Positions 3,289-39,255 of a DNA stretch of 50,708 bases are shown one piece after another. Within the stretch, counting starts at the first letter, position 1; the number at the start of each line of letters is the position of its first letter. Both the position numbers and the translations under genes were made by a program. The stretch lies in IMG/VR virus record IMGVR_UViG_3300036766_000591, positions 1 to 50,708 of that record; one strand, given 5' to 3'. The notes beneath the pieces were generated by a model that ran no database searches, was not told the DNA's origin, and saw only the letters and a list, made by a program, of their open reading frames with translations. The stretch comes from a virus (lineage: Duplodnaviria > Caudoviricetes).

Positions 3289-3903
3289 GGTTGGCTCTCC
3301 GGTGGCGCGGCCTCGGCGACCGAGACCGCGATGTGCAAGTCGATGCGCGTGATCTCGGCGCAGACAGCGGCCAGCTCCATCACCAGCCTCGCCTTCCGTT
3401 CTTTGGCTTCGATGAGCGCGTCAGGCAGGTTCTTCTCGATCGCTTTCAAGACCGAGCCGATGCCGTTGCCGCCCCGCTCTGAGGTCTCGCGGCGCTCCGC
3501 GTCCCGCACGGTTTTGGGTTCCACGGTGCCGAGGTCGGGCTTGTTCACAGGCCGGCGCCGCGCGCGCGGTCCACCGGCGAGCCCAAGGGGCGCCCGAAGA
3601 GCAGCGCGGCGCCGAGCAGGAGGAGCGTCAAGCCGAGGAGCTTCATTCGGTATCCCACGCGTTGGGGTCGCGCGCCTGCGCGGCGAGCCGGATGCGCTGG
3701 CGGGCGGCAAGGATCGCAAAGTTCTGCGCGAAATGCCGGCCGAACTGGCGGCCAGCCTCGACCAACTCTTGGTGGCGGCGCGCCTTCTCCCACCGCTCGC
3801 GGTGCGCGCGCCAGAAGCCGACGCCCACGGTCCACGCACACACCAGCACGGTCAGCGCGAGATTGACGAGCGCCCAGTCGAGGAGCATCCGGCCGATGGT
3901 CAC
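3285..3903 (-). CDS. Three small genes: 3285-3548, 3545-3646 (hydrophobic peptide), 3643-3903 (membrane protein)
   Basis: Coupled overlaps; hydrophobic segments LLGLTLLLLGAALLF and WALVNLALTVLVCAWTVGVGFW. Confidence 0.6.
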
Positions 3904-5582
3904 GCGGCCTCCAGTCCGAGCGGGATCTGAGCCTCGGCGTCACGGATGCGCCGCTCGGCGATGGCGACATAGGCCGCCTCGCGCTCGATACCCAAGAAGC
4001 GGCGGCCTTCCAGGACGCACGCGACGCCGGTCGTGCCGGAGCCCATGAAGGGGTCGAGGGCGAGGCCCTGCGGCGGGGTGACGAGCCTAACGAGCCAGCG
4101 CATGAGGTCAACCGGCTTCACGGTGGGATGGTGATTGCGACGCGGAATGTCTACCACTTCGCGGCCCGTCATCGGGTTGATTTTGTGGCCTTCGGCGCCT
4201 ATTAGGACCACCATAGCCTCGCCATCCAGCCCCGCCTCGCGTTCGGCGCGGGACGCCTTCGCGCAGTAGAAGAAGCGCGAGGCGCCGCCGGAGTCGCCAG
4301 AGAAGTGACCCGACCTCTCACCCATTCTCTCGCCCATGTCGGTAGCCCGGCCCTGCCGTATTCCTCCGGGCTGCTTTTCGCCGCTCACCAAGTTCCCGCT
4401 CTGCGCGTCGAGCATCGCCGCCGCGTCCCCGTCCAGCACGACGTTCGCGGGCCAGCGGCCACTAAGCGATGCAGATGCAGCTGTCTCGGCTCCAGTGGCA
4501 GACATCCGGTATCCATCATGAGAGTGCTTCGCAGGGTCGAATCGAGTCATTTCTGGCTTCCCCGCAATCCGGCACGCCTCGATGTTCAGCGCCCCCGTGC
4601 CGTGCGCCGCCACGTTCGCCGCCACCGTGCCGATGAGTGGCTTGCGCGCGAGGATGATCGGCAGCCAATCAGGCGAGAGGTTGCTTTCCTCCGGGCCGGT
4701 TGCCTCGTCGGCAAACCTCCCGATAGCAAGCTCGCCCGCAGTAGTGGAGGCGAGTCTTTCGCACTTGGCAACCACGCTTCTGGAAATACCGACCGCAAGC
4801 GACGCATCGGACGCGACGCCACTTGTCGCGCTCAAGTCCGCGGTGGTGAAGGCGTGCGTGATCCGCGATAGGCACGACCGCAAGATTCTCAGGTCGGTTG
4901 TCAGCGCGCTCGCCGTTGCGGTGGTGTACCTGCTCCTGGGGTCCAAGAGGGCGCCCAAGCATCCGTTCAGCGACGACGCGATGCTCAAGAGCCCAGACGT
5001 TAGGAGCAAGTCGGATGAAGGCGTACCCATCTTTGCGGATGAAACGACCGTGCATAGGGCCTCCCTTGTCGTGGGAGCCAATATAGCCAGTTCTTCCTGC
5101 TCTGACAAGGGTTTACGCGCTAGTATCACGGGCTCGTGTGCTGGCTTGAGCGCCGTGCCCCAACCCTTCCACTCGCCGTCGAGGTTCAGCGACTTCGGGA
5201 AGCCGGAGCCGTAGAGCCAGCACAGACAGTCGCGAATCTCCCAGCCCGCATCCTCGATAGCGCAGGTCAGGCGGTGGAAGGTGCGCGTCCCGCCGAAGGC
5301 CAAGAGGTGCGCGCCGGGCTTCGCCACGCGCAGCACCTCAGACCACGTCTCGATGCCAGGGATCTCGGAGTCCCATGACTGGCCCATGAAGCCGCCGCCG
5401 GTGCCGATGCGCGAGCGTCCAGCGGGTGACGCTTCATTGCGCGACGCTTCGCCGCTCCCGCCCTTCTTGTTGGCGGTTAAGGCATACGGTGGGTCACAGC
5501 AAACGGCGTCCACGCTGCCCGGTGCCAGCGTCCGCAGCACGTCCAAGCAATCGCCGTGGATCACCCTCGCACGGTCGCTCAC
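3900..5582 (-). CDS. DNA N6-adenine/N4-cytosine methyltransferase (beta-class motif order) with an in-frame insertion of ~157 aa
   Basis: GDCLDVL, DPPY, GFPKS, GRWPAN, ASRFFYCAKA, HPTVKP, DPFMGSGTTG. GTG start at 5582 overlaps the upstream stop. Confidence 0.92.
   Translation of the reverse strand: MSDRARVIHGDCLDVLRTLAPGSVDAVCCDPPYALTANKKGGSGEASRNEASPAGRSRIGTGGGFMGQSWDSEIPGIETWSEVLRVAKPGAHLLAFGGTRTFHRLTCAIEDAGWEIRDCLCWLYGSGFPKSLNLDGEWKGWGTALKPAHEPVILARKPLSEQEELAILAPTTREALCTVVSSAKMGTPSSDLLLTSGLLSIASSLNGCLGALLDPRSRYTTATASALTTDLRILRSCLSRITHAFTTADLSATSGVASDASLAVGISRSVVAKCERLASTTAGELAIGRFADEATGPEESNLSPDWLPIILARKPLIGTVAANVAAHGTGALNIEACRIAGKPEMTRFDPAKHSHDGYRMSATGAETAASASLSGRWPANVVLDGDAAAMLDAQSGNLVSGEKQPGGIRQGRATDMGERMGERSGHFSGDSGGASRFFYCAKASRAEREAGLDGEAMVVLIGAEGHKINPMTGREVVDIPRRNHHPTVKPVDLMRWLVRLVTPPQGLALDPFMGSGTTGVACVLEGRRFLGIEREAAYVAIAERRIRDAEAQIPLGLEAA
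4669..5055 (-). CDS. HNH endonuclease (HNH_3-like) with a C-terminal zinc finger, nested in another frame of the methyltransferase
   Basis: DGY..., EHRVVAERMLGRPL..EQVHHRNGERADNRPENL, CVAC...YCGRAC; Shine-Dalgarno AAGGGAGG lies 4 nt before the ATG. Confidence 0.85.
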   Translation of the reverse strand: MHGRFIRKDGYAFIRLAPNVWALEHRVVAERMLGRPLGPQEQVHHRNGERADNRPENLAVVPIADHARLHHRGLERDKWRRVRCVACGRYFQKRGCQVRKTRLHYCGRACYREVCRRGNRPGGKQPLA

Positions 5583-6692
5583 GCCACACGCCCTTCGGCC
5601 TTGGCCGCCAGCGCGAGGTACGAATCCGCCAACTCGCGGAGCTGCGCGCGCGCCGAGTCGAAGCTCACGCGGTTCGCCGCGTCCGCCTTCTTGAGCGCGC
5701 GCTCGGCGCGACTGAGCGCGAACGCCGTGACGCTCGGCGTCTCGATGATCGGCAGGCCGCAATGCGCGCAGGGGGGTGGAGGAATCGTCTTCACGCGGGC
5801 GGCCCGTCCGGGGCGGGAGCCGCGAGCAGGGCGCGGGCGTGAAACGCGGCGTCCTCGCACATCGGCGCGAGTTGCCGGTCGCGCTCGTACCCGAGGTCGC
5901 GCATACGCGCGGCGGCGAACGTCAGGGCTTTCTCCGATTCGCGCAGCGCCGCGCGCAGCCGGTCGGCCTCCGCGCGGGCAGCGGCAACAACCTCGGTCAT
6001 ACCTGCCGCGCCTTCTTCGGCGTTGCGAGCGCGCCGCACGGCCTCGTCGTAGAGGTTCCGGCAGGCGGCGCGAGCCGCTTCGAGCGGCATGAAATCAGCC
6101 AGCCGATAGCCCGCCTCGGTGGCGCACTTGGCCTCGGACACGACGGCGGCCAGCGCCTCGCGGAAGGGGTCAGACATTCCGATATACCTCGGCGTTCGGG
6201 TGGCAGTACGGCGCGCGGTCGCTGTAGTGAGCGAAGTCGGTGGGCATGTAGCCGTTAGCGACCAGCCATGCGCGGCGCTGCTCGGGCGTAGCGAACGCCT
6301 TGAATATGCGGTCACGCTTCCCCGCTGGAACCGCGGGCGTCAGGAGCCAGAAGGGGCGTGCGATGGCCAGCGGCCAGTCGGATTGAATGAGCCGCGCAGG
6401 CTTCGGCTTACGCGGCATGGTCGGGCTCCGAGGTGAGGCTCGGTGTCGTGGGCGGCGCGGCCATCCATTCCCTCACGGCCTTCGCGTGGGCGCATTGGTC
6501 GTAGGAACCACAGGGCCCGCAGATCAGCAGCACCCGGTCGTCGCCCTCGTCGATGACGGGCCGCTTGCCGAACACGCGGGACGTGGTGCCGCTCGGGAGG
6601 TAGATGACGAGCCAGGCCGCGGTGGCGCCGATGCCCCGCTCGCGCGTGCTCAAGTCCACGGCGCGGACCGCGTAGGCCGCGAGGTTGGTCAC
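5579..6692 (-). CDS. Small early genes: 5579-5794 (CxxC), 5791-6177, 6170-6418, 6408-6692 (Cys/His, SWIM-like pattern)
   Basis: Overlapping coupled ORFs; CAHC and ICGPC...CAH patterns. Confidence 0.6.
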
Positions 6693-28114: not shown

Positions 28115-28330
28115 CTAGGACTCCTTCCGGCGCATGAGCGCCGCCAGCACGGGACCGAGCCAGGCGTGGGCGGCGAGGATGAGGCCCACCGCCGGCCAGC
28201 GGCCGAAGCCCGCGCCATAGAGGGCGAGCCCACCGTAGAACTCCAGCTCGCGCACGCCGAAGCCCACCAGGCCCCAGCCCGCGAGAAGTCCGCGGCCGAC
28301 GGCGCCCAGCGCCGCGCGCAAGCGCCTCAT
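28115..28330 (-). CDS. Small membrane protein between terL and portal
   Basis: Hydrophobic 71 aa; ATGA-coupled. Confidence 0.65.
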   Translation of the reverse strand: MRRLRAALGAVGRGLLAGWGLVGFGVRELEFYGGLALYGAGFGRWPAVGLILAAHAWLGPVLAALMRRKES

Positions 28331-30033
28331 CCCACGCTCTCGATCAGGAAGCCCGCGTCGACCGGGCTCATCGTCTGCGCGCCCTTGAAGGCCAGGATCA
28401 GCGCCACCGCCGGGTCGATCTTGTTCTCCGGCCGGTCCTTGCGCGGGAAGACGTTCTCGTTCGCGTCCGGCCGGACGGTGACGTTGGAGAGAGCCCACGT
28501 CAGCACCGGGTCCGCCGCGTGGTGGACCCGGCCCGCGGCCACCGCGGCCTCGAAGTCCTTCATCGGCGCCGAGAGGTGTTGCACCTGCTGCGGCACCTCG
28601 ATCACCAACTTCTCCTCGATCCCCTCGCGCTTGAGGCGGTCGGTCAAAGCCCGGAGGTTCCAGGGGTCGCCCATGAAGACGCCCATCGCGTGCAGCTTCG
28701 CGTCCGCCAGGATCTCGTCGCCGATCACGTCGTAGTCGATGTCGTTCCCCTCGGTCGCCGTCAGCCAGCCCTCGTGCTCCCACTTCTGGTAATGCCGGTT
28801 CTTCGGGTCATCAACCGCGGCCCGCGGGCAGTAGTGGCGCGCGAAGACGGTGAAATGCGGCTCGCCCTCGACCTCGCGCCGGAAGACGCGCGCCACGCTC
28901 GCCAAGTCAAGGCGGCTCGCGAGGTCGGCCCCGAACGCCGCCGGCTCGCCGATGAAGTCGGCCGCCACAAGCGTCGCATCGCCGCAGCGCGTCCACCACT
29001 CGATGTTCATCCACGGCGAGCGCGCCGAGCACCAGACGTCGAGGTGTTTCGTCTTGAAGATGTTCTGTTGCCGCGCGTCATTCACGGCAGCCCGCTGCTG
29101 CTCCCGCAGGTAATCGCCCTTGACCGACACGTCGAAGTTGGGATTGGCCATCCGCAGCGCGTCCTCGGAGGTCCAATCCGTGCCTTCGTCCACCGCGTAA
29201 ATGATGCCGAAGAGCCGGTCGTCTTCGGCCCCCTCGAGCATCTTCTGGACGCGCTCCCTGAGCGCGTAACAGGGGCCGCCGATGTCCTCGCCCGCCGTCG
29301 TGATGACCTCGGCCAGCGGCTGCCGACGGGCTCCCATGCCCGTCACCATCGTGTCGAACTGCGTCGCGTCCTGGTGCTCGTGGTACTCGTCCGTGATCGA
29401 GAGCGAGGGCGAGGCGCCGTCGCCCGGCTTCCCGATGATGGGCTCCAGCCGCGCACCTGTGGCGAGAATCGTCAGACTCTTCGCGTTCACCTCGACGCCG
29501 TACTGCTCCAGGAACTCCGGCGTCCGCTCCGCCATCTGCTTCGCCGGCCGAAACACCTCCCACGCCTGCTTCTCGCTCGTCGCCCCGCTGTAGACCTCAC
29601 TCCCGAATTCGCCGTCCGCGGCGAAGAAGTAGAGCGCGTCGATCGCGGCGTCCGTGCTCTTGCCGTTCTTCCGCGGCATCTCCTCGTAGGAGACCCGGAA
29701 GCGCCGCATCCCAGTCTCCTTCTCGACCCAGCCGAACTTCATCGACCGCCGGAAGCACTGATGCGGCTGGAGCACGATGCGGTTCGGGACGCCCGGCTTC
29801 GGGATCGCCCATTCGCCCTTGACGTGCGGCAGCAGCTCCGCGAACCGGCAGGCTCGCTCGGCCTTCGCCCGGTCGAATGTGAACGGGTAGCTCTTCCGCC
29901 GCGCCCGCTTGAGGTCGGCGAGGTGCCGCTCGCAGGCGAGCCGCGTCCACTTGCACGCGAGGATGCGGCCCCCTACGACGTCCTTCGCGTAGCGGCTCGC
30001 CGTCTCGACGTGCGGGTACTTCGACTTGCTCAT
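28327..30033 (-). CDS. terL: Terminase large subunit
   Basis: PRKNGKS Walker A, ITDEYHEH, ITTAG, ANPN, DLAS..DL, KIDPAVA. Confidence 0.95.
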   Translation of the reverse strand: MSKSKYPHVETASRYAKDVVGGRILACKWTRLACERHLADLKRARRKSYPFTFDRAKAERACRFAELLPHVKGEWAIPKPGVPNRIVLQPHQCFRRSMKFGWVEKETGMRRFRVSYEEMPRKNGKSTDAAIDALYFFAADGEFGSEVYSGATSEKQAWEVFRPAKQMAERTPEFLEQYGVEVNAKSLTILATGARLEPIIGKPGDGASPSLSITDEYHEHQDATQFDTMVTGMGARRQPLAEVITTAGEDIGGPCYALRERVQKMLEGAEDDRLFGIIYAVDEGTDWTSEDALRMANPNFDVSVKGDYLREQQRAAVNDARQQNIFKTKHLDVWCSARSPWMNIEWWTRCGDATLVAADFIGEPAAFGADLASRLDLASVARVFRREVEGEPHFTVFARHYCPRAAVDDPKNRHYQKWEHEGWLTATEGNDIDYDVIGDEILADAKLHAMGVFMGDPWNLRALTDRLKREGIEEKLVIEVPQQVQHLSAPMKDFEAAVAAGRVHHAADPVLTWALSNVTVRPDANENVFPRKDRPENKIDPAVALILAFKGAQTMSPVDAGFLIESVG

Positions 30034-30419
30034 GCGGTCAGGGCTCCGAACTGGTTGGCCTTCGCCTTGCTCTTGCCACCCGGCACCTTCACCTTCGACC
30101 GGCTCCCGGCCATCCCGCCCAGGTCGGAGAGATAGCCGCGGAAGACGGCCCACTCCGACGCGCTCCCGCCGCTCTTCCGCAGGACGGCGTGCTGCTTCGC
30201 GGCGGCCCAGAGCGCCGTCCGGTCGGCCCGACCAAGCCACGGCATGTCGCCCGCCAGCTCCAGCCACCGCGCCCGCTCGGCCTCGTCGAGGTCGGCCGGC
30301 GGATCGCCGAGCGGCTCGTCGACGACCGGCTCGTCCGCGCGCTCGGCCAAGCGTTCTGGGTGCTTCCGGAAGGAGCCCCGGAGCTTCAGAACGCGCGTTG
30401 GGGTGCGGGGGCGGCCCAT
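30030..30419 (-). CDS. terS: Terminase small subunit (P27-like)
   Basis: MGRPRTPT..LKLRG, PP..L...W, LG....SR; coupled to terL. Confidence 0.8.
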   Translation of the reverse strand: MGRPRTPTRVLKLRGSFRKHPERLAERADEPVVDEPLGDPPADLDEAERARWLELAGDMPWLGRADRTALWAAAKQHAVLRKSGGSASEWAVFRGYLSDLGGMAGSRSKVKVPGGKSKAKANQFGALTA

Positions 30420-30454
30420 TAGTCAGCCCCGAGGCCCGCTTTGGGTAATGGAGG

Positions 30455-30520
30455 CAAGTGAAGGGCGCCCGCGCGCGGTCACACTCCAGTAGCCATGAAG
30501 TTCTTGGCCACCCCTTAACT
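30455..30520 (-). other. Candidate cos region
   Basis: Non-coding gap upstream of terS in an HNH-terS-terL (P27/HK97-type) module, containing GGGGTGG...GACCGCGCGCGGG; inferred from position only. Confidence 0.35.
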
Positions 30521-30541
30521 CCTTGTGCCTGGGCACTTGCC

Positions 30542-31438
30542 TCACATGCAGGCCGAGAACGTGCTGTTGCACAGGCGGCGCTGCTCATCTGAGGGGTGCT
30601 GCTCACATCCGTTAACTGCAACTTCAAGCGGCACGGCCGAGCGGTGCAGGAACGTGTCGGGGAACTGCCGCTGTAGGCTCAACTCCAGCCGCACGGCGCG
30701 CTGAAAGTCGCCGGGAGCCCTTGCGGCCAATCGCCGCCAGTCTCCGGTCGTGCGGTGCGGACACATCCAACAGGACGTGCGCTCCGGGACGGGCCAGCCG
30801 GCGCTAGTGATGAGATCCACGCAAGCGGCGCGATCGAGGCCGCGCTCGATTAGCGGCCATCGCAACCGGACCCACTTGTTCTGGTCGGGTTTCGCGCGTT
30901 GCGTCTCATCGGCGGCAATGCCGATCCATTGCTCACAGGCACGCACTCCCCGCGCGCGCAGCCATCGCTTCGTCACCCTAGCCTTCCATGGGCCCGAGCA
31001 GCGCGTGCCGAGTTTCGCAATCGTGCCGTCTGCCTTGCGCCTGTAGGCGGGTATCACAAGGTGGTCGTTCTTGACTAGCACGTTGTCACCGTGATCCACG
31101 GTCTTGAGGATGGTTATGAGAACTCCAGCCTCGGCCAACTTCGGGGCCAGCACGGTCCTCGCGTAATCCCATGTAGTCTCGGGCTCGTAGCCCACGTCCA
31201 CCATGATGGCGTAGTCCGGCCTTGGCAACAAACCCTGGCAAATGAGCACCGCAACGGCGGTAGAATCGACCCCGCCTCCGCATGACCAAACAATCGTTCG
31301 GTCGCGCGTCCCGTTGCGCGCTTCAATGATCGCGCCTGTCGTTATGTTCGCGCAACCTTGTGAACAGTACCGCCGCCGCCTGTGCGTCGAAGCGAACTCG
31401 GCGCCACATTGCACGCGCTGACATACGAGCGTCATCAC
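30542..31438 (-). CDS. PAPS-reductase-like PP-loop protein with an N-terminal zinc finger
   Basis: VWSCGGGVDS PP-loop, D.GYEP..TW.Y, WIGI..DE..R, WPLI, SCWMCP; N-terminal C..C...YCSQGC. Confidence 0.75.
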   Translation of the reverse strand: MMTLVCQRVQCGAEFASTHRRRRYCSQGCANITTGAIIEARNGTRDRTIVWSCGGGVDSTAVAVLICQGLLPRPDYAIMVDVGYEPETTWDYARTVLAPKLAEAGVLITILKTVDHGDNVLVKNDHLVIPAYRRKADGTIAKLGTRCSGPWKARVTKRWLRARGVRACEQWIGIAADETQRAKPDQNKWVRLRWPLIERGLDRAACVDLITSAGWPVPERTSCWMCPHRTTGDWRRLAARAPGDFQRAVRLELSLQRQFPDTFLHRSAVPLEVAVNGCEQHPSDEQRRLCNSTFSACM

Positions 31439-31839
31439 GTGAGGCTCCGCGCGAGCGGTCCCACGTCCACGAAGCCTGTGCCGGTGACCACGAGGAGCTG
31501 ACGCCCCACCCGCTCGGCGTGGCGCTTCTTGCCATGACAGGAGGCGCAGAGCCCTTGCTGGTTGTCGAGGTCATCGGCCGCGCCGCCCGCCTCGATGGGC
31601 ACGATGTGGTCATCCACGGTCGAGGGCGTCGTGCGACCGACGGCGAGACACGCCACACAGAGCGGGTCGCAGGCCAGGACGATGCTGCGCCTTCTCCGGT
31701 GCTCGCTGCCGTACCCGCGCGAGGCGGCGCTGCCGCGTGCCTGCTCGCGCGCACGTCGGTGGTCAGCACAGCGCCCGCCCGACGTCGTGGTGTAGCGACA
31801 GCCGGGCTCCAGGCAGGGTCTCGCGGGGCGCATCGGCAT
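31435..31839 (-). CDS. Packaging-associated HNH endonuclease (HK97 gp74-like)
   Basis: PC..PGC, RG.AASRGYG, PLCVAC, DHIVP...GG...N.QGLC.SCH. Confidence 0.9.
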   Translation of the reverse strand: MPMRPARPCLEPGCRYTTTSGGRCADHRRAREQARGSAASRGYGSEHRRRRSIVLACDPLCVACLAVGRTTPSTVDDHIVPIEAGGAADDLDNQQGLCASCHGKKRHAERVGRQLLVVTGTGFVDVGPLARSLT

Positions 31840-37804: not shown

Positions 37805-39255
37805 GCGGCACCTTCGATCTGGTCGATGGCCGCGAAGATGGCCCACGCCACGGCGGGCACGATGGCGTTTCCGACGAGACGGCATCCCGCCGCGCGGTTG
37901 GGCATCCCGCTCACGACGGGCCAGCGATTCTCGCAGCCGCCACCGAACGCAAAGGCTTCCACGATGTTGTCGCTTTCACGCGACCGGGAATAGTCCAACC
38001 AAGCTTCCATTGCCTGTGGTGCCAGCGCATGTGGCAGGGCCCGCACACGACCTGCAAGTTCTGCCGCGCGCTGTTCGCGGGATCGCCATCCATGTGATGG
38101 ACTTGGAGTCCCGCAGTAGCGGCACAGACTTCGCATTTCTCCAGCCTGCCCACCGTCTGTCGCGCGATGGTCTTCCACCGCCCATAACTGCGTACCGGAC
38201 GGGAATTCGCGCACGAAAGCGAGCAGAACCGCCTCCGCCGAAAGACACCGTAGTCCTCCAGTCGGCCACTGATCCGCTTGCGCGTCATCGGCACACCGCA
38301 CCACTGGCAGGGCTTCAAAGGCGCTGGCTTCACTGGCATGGGCACCTAACGCCGTCCTTTCTTCTGGCGGAGATACACGACATTCAACCAGCCAGCGGGA
38401 AAACCCATCAACCAAGCTCCGAAATTGGGATTGTACGCCGCCCGCTGGCCCGTCGGTTTCGCCGTCGCCGCCGCTAAGCTGAGGTTGTGATTGCCCTTGA
38501 TCCCCTCGAACGCCTTCACCTCGCCCGGCTTCGGCGGGGACGAGCCTAACGGTGCCATCCGCCCCTCGGATGGCAACGGCGTCGGCCCAAGGCGCGAGAA
38601 GTTGACCGATTGTCGGCCCAGCAGCGCATTCTCTAGCACGCCTGCCACACTCGCTCCGTCCTTCCCGTCCCGCGTCGTCGGCGTCGCCCAACCCGCTAGC
38701 GCGTCCTCCAGTTTCCGTATCCCGCCGACCAGCGTCTTCCGCTCTGCCTGGCCACCCCCCGTTGGCGTCTTGGGCGTGGGCCACGATCCAGACCCGTTCC
38801 CGGCGGTGGGGGGCACCAACGTCGGCCGCGGCGACACTGTCCCACGTCGCATCGTACCCGAGGCGGGCCAGGTCTGAGAGAACTTCGCCGAACGCACATC
38901 CGTCGTTGACGGAAAGCAGTCCAGGGACATTCTCGAAAAGGCACCAGCGGGGTCGAAGCTCCCCAACGCATCGGGCGACTGCGGGCCAGAGCCATCGGCT
39001 ATCGCTCGTGCCCAACCGTCGGCCAGCGTGGGAAGCGGGCTGGCAGGGGAAGCCGCCAGCGAGGATGTCGGGTCGCTCAACGCTGCTCCAGTCCACCGTA
39101 GTGAGGTCGCCCACGTTCCGCGCCTCGGGGAAATGATGTGCCATGACCCGACACGCCCACGGCTCGATCTCCGAGTACCATGCCGTCGTCCAGCCTAACT
39201 GACGGGCCGCGAGATCGAAGCCTCCTTGGCCTGCACACAGCGAACCCAGCCTCAC
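37801..39255 (-). CDS. DNA C5-cytosine methyltransferase, alpha polypeptide (motifs I-VIII and X)
   Basis: GSLCAG.GG, GGFPCQP, FENVPG, GAPHRRERVW, GNAIVP; GTG start at 39255. Confidence 0.9.
   Translation of the reverse strand: MRLGSLCAGQGGFDLAARQLGWTTAWYSEIEPWACRVMAHHFPEARNVGDLTTVDWSSVERPDILAGGFPCQPASHAGRRLGTSDSRWLWPAVARCVGELRPRWCLFENVPGLLSVNDGCAFGEVLSDLARLGYDATWDSVAAADVGAPHRRERVWIVAHAQDANGGWPGRAEDAGRRDTETGGRASGLGDADDAGREGRSECGRRARECAAGPTIGQLLAPWADAVAIRGADGTVRLVPAEAGRGEGVRGDQGQSQPQLSGGDGETDGPAGGVQSQFRSLVDGFSRWLVECRVSPPEERTALGAHASEASAFEALPVVRCADDAQADQWPTGGLRCLSAEAVLLAFVREFPSGTQLWAVEDHRATDGGQAGEMRSLCRYCGTPSPSHGWRSREQRAAELAGRVRALPHALAPQAMEAWLDYSRSRESDNIVEAFAFGGGCENRWPVVSGMPNRAAGCRLVGNAIVPAVAWAIFAAIDQIEGAA
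37911..38345 (-). CDS. HNH endonuclease with an N-terminal zinc finger, nested in the +1 frame of the C5 methyltransferase
   Basis: CQWCG...FCSLSCAN; CEVC...QVHHMDGDPANS..NLQVVC..CH..WH. Confidence 0.82.
   Translation of the reverse strand: MPMPVKPAPLKPCQWCGVPMTRKRISGRLEDYGVFRRRRFCSLSCANSRPVRSYGRWKTIARQTVGRLEKCEVCAATAGLQVHHMDGDPANSARQNLQVVCGPCHMRWHHRQWKLGWTIPGRVKATTSWKPLRSVAAARIAGPS
38346..39080 (-). CDS. C5 methyltransferase beta-like polypeptide in the +1 frame (WPTP repeats, motif IX)
   Basis: WPTP/WATP and NPNFGAWLMGFPAGW; TTG start with a GGAG RBS; arrangement as in M.EcoHK31I. Confidence 0.7.
   Translation of the reverse strand: MSDPTSSLAASPASPLPTLADGWARAIADGSGPQSPDALGSFDPAGAFSRMSLDCFPSTTDVRSAKFSQTWPASGTMRRGTVSPRPTLVPPTAGNGSGSWPTPKTPTGGGQAERKTLVGGIRKLEDALAGWATPTTRDGKDGASVAGVLENALLGRQSVNFSRLGPTPLPSEGRMAPLGSSPPKPGEVKAFEGIKGNHNLSLAAATAKPTGQRAAYNPNFGAWLMGFPAGWLNVVYLRQKKGRR

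Follow-up and report, generated by a model that had tools for sequence, protein, structure and literature searches.

In the DNA of an uncultured virus of the Caudoviricetes (IMG/VR record IMGVR_UViG_3300036766_000591), a free-standing-type HNH_3 endonuclease gene is inserted into the DNA that encodes the near-invariant strand motif KPxxEPIxLARKPL of a beta-class DNA methyltransferase (methylase). The stretch analyzed here (the window) is the complete virus record, i.e., 50,708 bp with a guanine + cytosine (GC) fraction of 0.68, and the methylase, HNH and motif features all lie on its minus strand. The inserted cassette carries a recoded surrogate copy of the motif at its 5' end, and the codons of the HNH gene are chosen such that no dicodon gives a stop in the methylase frame. 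Most probably, the element is a splicing-free homing cassette of the ShiLan type, in which the methylase is read through the insert and the HNH protein is synthesized separately.

An HNH gene nested in a full-length methylase frame

The methylase open reading frame (ORF; 3900..5582, 560 amino acids), which stays open through the insert, was assigned to the N6/N4 (beta-class) DNA methyltransferases from its Pfam profile (N6_N4_Mtase, PF01555; 93.9 bits, cut-off 26.7), its match to PHROG 67 (E 1.8e-71) and its modeled fold. The ORF begins with a GTG that overlaps the stop codon of the one upstream. The catalytic motif IV, DPPY, was read from the sequence at residues 30-33 (5484..5495), in columns that are invariant in alignments A1 and A3, while the S-adenosylmethionine-binding motif I, FMGSGTTG, occupies residues 512-519 (4026..4049), in columns that are invariant or nearly so in the same alignments. 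Both motifs, as well as HPTVKP, are intact in the full-length ORF. DPPY precedes FxGxG, which corresponds to the beta-class circular permutation, and profile, motif order and fold all agree with this class. The methylase core of a first, low-confidence structural model matched M.BceJIV, TTHA0409, CcrM, MboIIA, RsrI and PvuII (Z 16.6-20.4), with Z values of 19.6-20.4 for M.BceJIV and CcrM. A preliminary description of this DNA, made from the sequence alone, had proposed an overprinted HNH gene within a methylase that is otherwise intact; the presence of DPPY and FxGSGTTG, together with the clear Pfam match, bears this out.

The nested ORF (4669..5055, 128 amino acids) encodes an HNH_3 endonuclease (Pfam PF13392; 46.6 bits, cut-off 24.8) with a C-terminal Cys4 zinc finger, the residues of which (CxxC...C...C) are present in alignment A2. 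Its phase is such that position 2 of each HNH codon starts a methylase codon. A Shine-Dalgarno-like AAGGGAGG (5060..5067) was read from the sequence 4 nucleotides (nt) 5' of the HNH ATG, so that the length, the zinc finger and the ribosome-binding site of the HNH gene are all as first described. Degeneration of the catalytic residues across homologues, which had been named beforehand as a possible objection, was not seen, i.e., H44, H45, N53, N57 and H66, together with the zinc residues, are conserved in 41/41 nested relatives. An N-terminal zinc finger (CxxC...CSxxC) is missing both from the window HNH and from that of its relative L014, each of which starts just before GRF.R.DGY. Where ShiLan-type HNH proteins have two zinc fingers, the window protein has the C-terminal Cys4 only and is a short variant.

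Read in the methylase frame, KPAHEPVILARKPL (5106..5147) is followed by 143 residues, by SPDWLPIILARKPL (4635..4676) and then by normal methylase sequence, such that a motif of the form KPxxEPxxLARKPL bounds the insert on both sides. The net insertion is 429 + 42 nt, and its length is divisible by three. Cassette boundaries (4671..5141, 471 nt or 157 codons) were inferred from the Lys-Pro/Glu-Pro junctions in a comparison of Shauna1 with Filuzino, described below, and may be off by ~9 nt; the profile of GC at third codon positions (GC3) and a dip in GC, from 0.67-0.73 in the flanks to 0.55-0.65 within the insert, agree with them. Approximately 90 of the 471 nt lie outside the HNH ORF, nearly all of them 5' of the ATG, and at the other end the first 8 nt of the downstream motif copy overlap the HNH 3' end and its TGA stop. 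The preliminary description had counted ~140 off-frame residues rich in Ser, Thr, Ala and Leu between the motif copies; these are the 143 residues given above, and when the inserts of 41 related elements are pooled, the four amino acids together make up 49% of the methylase-frame peptide.

The methylase frame is open across relatives

Because nested ORFs are never called, searches of gene-call proteins are biased, and loci were therefore collected at the DNA level. The window's own HNH protein was absent from a collection of 5.8 billion proteins, a search of which returned 28 proteins with a best identity of 57%. The HNH profile gave 0 matches to PDB sequences at E up to 0.01, and when viral sequences were first scanned with the HNH protein by itself, only 8 distant loci were recovered. 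Contigs of two sediment runs yielded short pieces of 85-95% likeness that skip the insert region; they are probably other, insert-free methylases and were not used as evidence. The DNA-level sets comprised 80 viral-contig loci, collected with the methylase alignment, and, with the HNH alignment, 59 species-genome loci and a metagenome set consisting of the best 80 of 481 confirmed stretches, themselves drawn from at least 590 pattern matches. A total of 153 loci were examined, with an HNH match in 151. Methylase flanks were found on both sides of the HNH gene in 49 loci, on one side in 14, elsewhere in 6 and not at all in 82.

In all 49 two-flank loci, the N- and C-terminal flanks share one frame, the HNH gene is offset by +1 and there are zero stops. 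Amongst the distinct nested elements, which span a GC of 0.38-0.66, the +1 (methylase) frame was open in 42/42 and the +2 frame in 0/42, with 0 and 5.9 stops per 100 codons, respectively. The corresponding figures for free-standing relatives were 12/74 open frames in +1 and 11/74 in +2 (3.3 and 4.1 stops per 100 codons), and for free-standing HNH genes of at least 80 codons they were 1/22 and 2/22. Dicodon use differed in the same way: within nested genes, an xTG codon was followed by a codon starting with A in 0/212 cases (36.5 expected) and an xTA codon by one starting with A or G in 0/26, whereas free-standing relatives had 102/436 (99.8 expected) and 73/119 of these pairs. Synonymous permutation within the ORFs of 41 elements predicted 14.2 open frames, as compared with 41 observed. 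The open methylase frame across relatives is far beyond chance. Read-through is under selection, which speaks for a methylase that is synthesized with the insert retained.

These results leave only a slim chance that the methylase is dead and that its open frame is a side effect of high GC. Nine free-standing relatives that have a GC >0.6 and are 80 codons or longer contain 24 stops in 853 codons, a rate that predicts ~3.6 stops for 128 codons; the frame is open in 42/42 relatives, including those with a GC of 0.38-0.50, and the window's methylase ORF is of full length with DPPY, FxGSGTTG and HPTVKP all in place. A dead methylase would nevertheless be compatible with the genome GC of 0.68, with the window-only P(open) of 0.63, and with a downstream motif copy that is without the invariant Glu.

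Amongst 41 nested elements, pairwise nucleotide divergence at HNH codon positions 1, 2 and 3 was 0.36, 0.33 and 0.54, and amino-acid identity was higher in the HNH frame (0.55) than in the methylase frame (0.35). Together with the conserved catalytic and zinc residues, this position-wise divergence indicates that the HNH is the conserved protein and that the methylase frame is mainly kept open. At equal protein divergence, four-fold wobble sites were more conserved in nested than in free-standing HNH genes (0.41 versus 0.30 identical, with ~0.28 expected in both). Across the 42 nested loci, this wobble conservation may reflect either selection on the methylase-frame peptide or a relaxed constraint or clock in the HNH gene.

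The first of these possibilities would suit a different history, in which the HNH gene is carried along, silent or decaying, as a passenger and the insert persists as a tolerated or domesticated domain of the methylase. The window copy lacks the N-terminal zinc finger of longer forms and has no near-identical relative, as might be expected of a passenger. However, its ORF is intact and has both a Shine-Dalgarno site and an ATG, the nested set retains the catalytic and zinc residues throughout, and the signature of purifying selection sits in the HNH frame; we regard a passenger as unlikely.

Intron and intein signals were not detected

A self-splicing intron (group I or derived) that carries the HNH gene and is removed from the mRNA would make the open frame irrelevant. 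Introns frequently encode HNH_3 nucleases, and an insert whose 5' end resembles the 3' exon can be an intron signature, according to Arsenault et al. (2025; PMC11855218). Yet splicing would remove selection for an open frame, and the frame is open in 42/42 elements with stop-making dicodons avoided. The ~90 nt outside the HNH ORF are also all that the insert offers beyond it. Rfam covariance models found no ribozyme core, with no match either in 3500-6500 (E up to 1) or in 20 related loci (gathering threshold), a test that a highly derived ribozyme could escape, and the RNAweasel/MFannot searches reported in the published study were also negative (PMC11855218). An intron is thus a very improbable explanation.

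We likewise give almost no credence to an atypical intein that would be spliced out of the protein. Like an intein, the insert keeps the reading frame of its host and lies within a conserved motif, and Ser or Thr has been noted at the C-side junction of many invaded genes (PMC11855218). A Pfam search of the 560-amino-acid protein, however, returned methylase families only, with none of the Hint or intein type; of the two frames, that of the methylase gives the less conserved peptide (0.35 versus 0.55 identity), with variation that peaks at its codon position 2; and the insert is modeled as a helical bundle and not as a Hint fold. RNA and protein splicing had both been raised as grounds for doubting the overprinted arrangement, and neither the Rfam nor the Pfam search gave a signal for them.

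The HNH start is frequently led by a Shine-Dalgarno site

A Shine-Dalgarno-like site precedes the start in 36/43 distinct elements, and in 25/43 it is strong (GGAGG, AGGAG or similar), with one to five candidate starts per element entering the count. Amongst 1,851 start-like triplets in flanking methylase DNA, which served as the control, any such site was found before 12.5% and a strong one before 3.9%. In members of the mycobacteriophage type, Mantra and Filuzino amongst them, GGAGG lies 4 nt 5' of a GTG. Leaderless GTG initiation has been proposed for the hidden HNH by Arsenault et al. (PMC11855218). Given how frequently a Shine-Dalgarno site leads the HNH start, ordinary internal initiation seems more likely than the leaderless route, and a start of this kind competes with the published idea.

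In the window, two successive rare codons in the upstream motif copy, CGT AAA, give a TAA in the HNH frame (5113-5115, minus strand). This closes the HNH frame 19 codons before the ATG, which makes a long N-terminal extension of the HNH protein impossible.

The upstream motif copy arrives with the element

The two motif copies differ in codon use and in origin. The upstream copy, KPAHEPVILARKPL (residues 146-159), is written in rare codons and, by homology, is borne by the element from about its codon 3, whereas the downstream copy, SPDWLPIILARKPL (residues 303-316), has genome-typical codons and is native as judged by codon use, GC3 and the Shauna1/Filuzino comparison. Upstream, the codons ATA, CTA, CGT, AAA and TTG each represent 3-10% of their codon families in the window genome. 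The geometric mean of relative codon use was 0.19 for the upstream and 0.37 for the downstream copy, in line with the atypical and typical codons that had been pointed out at the start. The window's two copies agree at 9/14 residues, as compared with a mean of 7.0/14 over 45 distinct elements.

Insert-free homologues were expected to carry the motif once, and a single copy was found in the five that are included in alignment A1 and in 73 distinct insert-free viral loci. In these 73 distinct genes the motif is nearly invariant, with K, P, E, K and P each at 73/73, R at 70 and L at 62.

Motif copies were then compared within 45 distinct invaded genes, two rows of which are mis-anchored. The copies of a gene share 51% of bases, and where their residues are identical the codon is the same in 94/316 cases. 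GC3 is lower in the upstream than in the downstream copy in 38 elements and higher in 3. Along the methylase frame of 42 elements, GC3 drops at about codon 4 of the upstream copy and recovers at about codon 4 of the downstream copy. Comparison of the uninvaded Shauna1 with the invaded Filuzino placed the junctions more directly: on the left side, identity extends through the Lys-Pro codons, and on the right side it begins again in the region of the downstream copy, 2 bases ahead of GAG CCC (Glu-Pro). From GAG CCC to the end of the motif, the Filuzino downstream copy equals the empty gene save for one base, and the upstream copy differs. This pattern of identity indicates that the downstream copy is native and that the upstream copy arrives with the element.

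The preliminary description had gone further, proposing that the element brought a recoded replacement of its target. The upstream copy is indeed element-borne and recoded, as seen from its rare codons, the GC3 profile and the Shauna1/Filuzino junctions, but "replacement" is too strong a word, the downstream copy being conserved at R, K, P and L and forming the core strand in the better of two AlphaFold models. The two copies conserve partly complementary residues. The upstream copy retains K, P, E, A, K and P (42-44/45, with the first K, P and E at 44/45 each) and is relaxed at P5 (23/45), R (21/45) and L (7/45). In the downstream copy, the first K is found in 0/45 and E in 31/45, with R at 40/45, the second K at 42/45, P at 44/45 and L at 36/45. 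This complementarity provides a testable model of how an enzyme might tolerate an insertion in a core strand.

A ribosomal hop between the motif copies was considered and rejected, since the copies share 1/9 codons at identical residues and lie 471 nt apart. Separately, loci L136 (1642-2148), L164 (83-499) and L094 have a ShiLan-type HNH gene just upstream of the motif with no duplication, and the single motif copy in L136 and L164 has the full consensus.

The off-frame peptide is modeled as a helical bundle

AlphaFold was run with two alignment depths. With 16 sequences the model was poor, with a mean predicted local distance difference test (pLDDT) score of 50.4, and had the upstream motif copy as core strand (pLDDT ~71). 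With 120 sequences the mean pLDDT rose to 75.6 and the predicted template modeling score (pTM) was 0.63; here, the downstream copy forms a strand at residues 305-313 (block pLDDT 69 for 301-310 and 96 for 311-320), the upstream copy is a low-confidence loop, and the insert consists of four long helices with pLDDT 73-92. Because the deep alignment puts most of the insert-free motif on the downstream copy, the choice of core strand is not an independent result.

For the insert, AlphaFold predicts with good confidence a four-helix bundle and not the disordered loop that had been raised as a possibility. The insert of the first, low-confidence model matched generic four-helix bundles only (Z 11-13, which is within helical noise). 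The off-frame peptide may fold as a helical bundle, and it may itself be under selection. A predicted bundle in an off-frame peptide hints at the birth of a domain by overprinting.

Cassettes of this family move between divergent methylases

Identity of the HNH gene and of the methylase flanks was almost uncorrelated (r2 0.05, Spearman 0.20; 595 pairs from 35 loci), and in some pairs of loci the HNH was 0.94-0.97 identical whereas the flanks were 0.47-0.56 identical. In such pairs, a DNA tract with at least 90% identity spans both motif copies plus ~40-60 nt, beyond which identity falls to 0.2-0.5. Bounded high-identity tracts of this kind are the co-conversion signature expected of homing. 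At the level of the family, sequence comparison indicates that the cassette moves between divergent methylases.

The same data bear on whether the nuclease and the methylase could form a restriction-modification-like pair, with the nuclease attacking unmethylated competitor DNA and the methylase protecting the phage's own. Physical nesting and obligatory co-transcription are all that speak for such a pair, which we consider most improbable: the HNH gene moves independently of the methylase (r2 0.05; 95% versus 47% identity), it is always found at one conserved coding motif, as homing genes are, and 77/79 related viral methylase loci in which both flanks were found have no insert at this site.

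A proposed homing cycle and observations that weigh against it

We propose that the element homes without splicing. The methylase would be translated straight through the cassette as one 560-amino-acid protein, with the 143 off-frame residues predicted to form a protruding four-helix module between the catalytic core and the target-recognition region, and the HNH protein would be made separately by internal initiation at its own Shine-Dalgarno site and ATG. During co-infection or contact with a prophage, the HNH protein would cut or nick insert-free alleles at the conserved motif, and recombinational repair would then copy the cassette in, together with short flanking tracts. The invaded allele would be immune to cutting because its target is split and the surrogate copy recoded.

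A fuller interpretation is more tentative, and we would put it as possible but somewhat doubtful. It holds that the cassette is a two-product overprint, in which ~390 nt yield both an active HNH protein and a selected four-helix spacer with adjacent ends; that the two motif copies divide the work between them; and that the whole constitutes a third, splicing-free mode of homing in an invariant enzyme motif, which occurs across phages of actinobacteria, cyanobacteria and proteobacteria.

Several observations weigh against splicing-free homing with read-through of the methylase. Taken alone, the open frame of the window is not significant, given its P(open) of 0.63 in within-ORF synonymous permutation, a conservative test. 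The frame was broken or re-phased in 2/14 one-flank loci, namely L094, with a frameshift near the 3' junction, and L145 (3-943), on a contig cut at its 5' end. In the latter, the methylase frame is closed within the HNH region and the C-terminal methylase part lies in another phase with its own Met; L145 may be a split or decaying allele. The window's downstream copy has Leu where 73/73 insert-free genes have Glu, and, should this copy be the one that works as the strand, the methylase may be impaired. As to the motif copy that forms the core strand, the two AlphaFold models give different answers. Finally, the nearest relative of the window copy, L014, is only 67% identical in the HNH gene and 61% in the flanks, which gives no sign of recent movement of this particular copy.

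Genomic context of the window

The virus has a siphovirus-type gene set that includes the large terminase, portal, protease, major head and tail proteins, tape measure, endolysin and a Bet-like annealing protein. A search with the large terminase found no close cultured relative, the best match being to Vibrio phages at 50% identity. The terminase large-subunit ORF (28327-30627, minus strand) is 766 amino acids long, but its first ~200 residues are not covered by family or phage matches; translation may truly start further in, or else the protein has acquired an N-terminal part of unknown kind by fusion. A second HNH endonuclease, unrelated to the first (PHROG 144, E 8.9e-29), is encoded at 31435-31839 (minus strand), which, relative to transcription, is ~800 bp upstream of the large terminase ORF, and by this linkage resembles the packaging-associated HNH type. 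Additionally, a 144-amino-acid open frame has a weak HNH-like match at 38007-38105 (minus strand; E 8.9e-4, 45% identity over 33 residues).

Comparison with known systems

A tblastn search of 50,697 phage records with the window HNH matched 106 records, and amongst the 30 matches listed, 17 lie under an annotated DNA methylase coding sequence (CDS). These methylase-nested matches include cyanophage Cr-LKS3 and the mycobacteriophages Mantra, Totinger, Starcevich, Filuzino, Pollywog, MISSy, Murica, Bipolar, OwlsT2W, ShiLan and MKC-IRE-02. The HNH relatives under methylase CDSs of ShiLan, Mantra, Filuzino and eight other phages have ~39-46% identity (E 5e-22 to 5e-15); for ShiLan, Mantra and others, identity is 38.7-41.4% over 87% of the query (E 3e-19 to 5e-15). 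Mantra, Filuzino and Cr-LKS3 have the same architecture as the window, i.e., two motif copies, an open methylase frame and the same HNH phase.

An in-frame insert of this kind in a phage methylase was named the "ShiLan domain" by Gosselin et al. (2023), who showed that its distribution is disjunct (PMC9957025). Arsenault et al. (2025) report that the ShiLan insert hides an out-of-frame HNH gene and adds no stops, that it is without an intron or intein signature, and that the 11 residues at its start are similar to the 11 that follow the insertion site (PMC11855218). Such a methylase/HNH pair was also annotated in phage Applejack, according to a 2025 genome announcement (PMC12613952). The novelty of the arrangement was therefore overestimated in the preliminary description, the open frame and the repeated residues having been in print (PMC9957025; PMC11855218). 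The general phenomenon is already published, and the window adds a short-form member from an uncultured high-GC phage. Beyond this, the DNA-level survey adds selection for the open frame, the Shine-Dalgarno starts, the element-borne motif copy, the complementary conservation of the two copies and the mobility of the cassette. As gene callers never report nested nucleases, censuses of phage homing endonucleases undercount them.

The window element is the published ShiLan-type hidden-HNH cassette in a short form. It shares with the ShiLan system the methylase family and the insertion inside the KP..EP..ARKPL motif, an HNH gene in the "third frame" of the methylase with no methylase-frame stops, an insert start that repeats the residues following the insertion site, a homologous HNH protein (38.7% identity, E 5e-15 to the ShiLan record), a predicted helical insert and the lack of an intron or intein signal. 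It differs in several respects. The window HNH has 128 amino acids, as compared with 195 (as published) or ~170 (from the Shine-Dalgarno-led start) for the ShiLan type, and unlike the latter it has no N-terminal zinc finger. It has a clear Shine-Dalgarno site and ATG, whereas a leaderless GTG was proposed for ShiLan, and its TGA stop reaches into the native motif copy, unlike that of ShiLan. The window phage is uncultured, has a GC of 68%, comes from sediment and is without a close cultured relative.

Hidden HNH genes are also found at other sites of such methylases. Pacc40 gp60, a divergent methylase, contains a different one elsewhere in its sequence (PMC11855218, section 3.6); as in the window, an out-of-frame nuclease ORF lies within an open methylase frame, whereas the insertion site and the HNH lineage are different and no duplicated motif is noted in that section. 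Comparable to the Pacc40 gp60 type are three of our loci. The viral contigs L045 (1916-2563) and L062 (1814-2548) have a different, larger HNH ORF (216-245 amino acids, offset 2) nested in homologous methylases, at a variable loop between GFPKSLNV and GxALKP, with methylase frames that are open (622 and 588 amino acids). In L080 (2388-2798), a 137-amino-acid HNH at offset 1 lies near the C-terminal HxTVKP of an open methylase frame (503 amino acids), and this insertion represents a third site in the same methylase family. Another kind of insertion occurs in Mantra gp64 (L011, 1281-3605), where the same methylase also has an in-frame LAGLIDADG-type insertion near its N-terminus, as already reported by Gosselin et al. 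(PMC9957025).

With intron-encoded and free-standing HNH_3 homing endonucleases such as I-HmuI, the window element has in common the catalytic core, a conserved coding target and a patchy distribution of the kind that homing predicts; it differs in that no ribozyme removes the insert and the host frame reads through. I-HmuI itself is a member of the HNH_3 family. It is named by Arsenault et al. (PMC11855218). Inteins with a homing endonuclease resemble the window element in their in-frame insertion into an invariant motif of a conserved enzyme and in their horizontal spread. In contrast to inteins, the window element has no Hint domain; its nuclease is encoded in another frame and would be synthesized on its own, and the inserted peptide apparently remains part of the methylase. 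Finally, the mobA/gene 60 bypass cassette of phage T4 and the mobE-split nrd of Aeromonas phage Aeh1 are further cases of a free-standing HNH-family homing gene inside coding sequence, in which a device preserves the function of the host gene and blocks re-cleavage. These cases use ribosomal bypassing or split polypeptides, whereas the window keeps one uninterrupted frame by dual coding.

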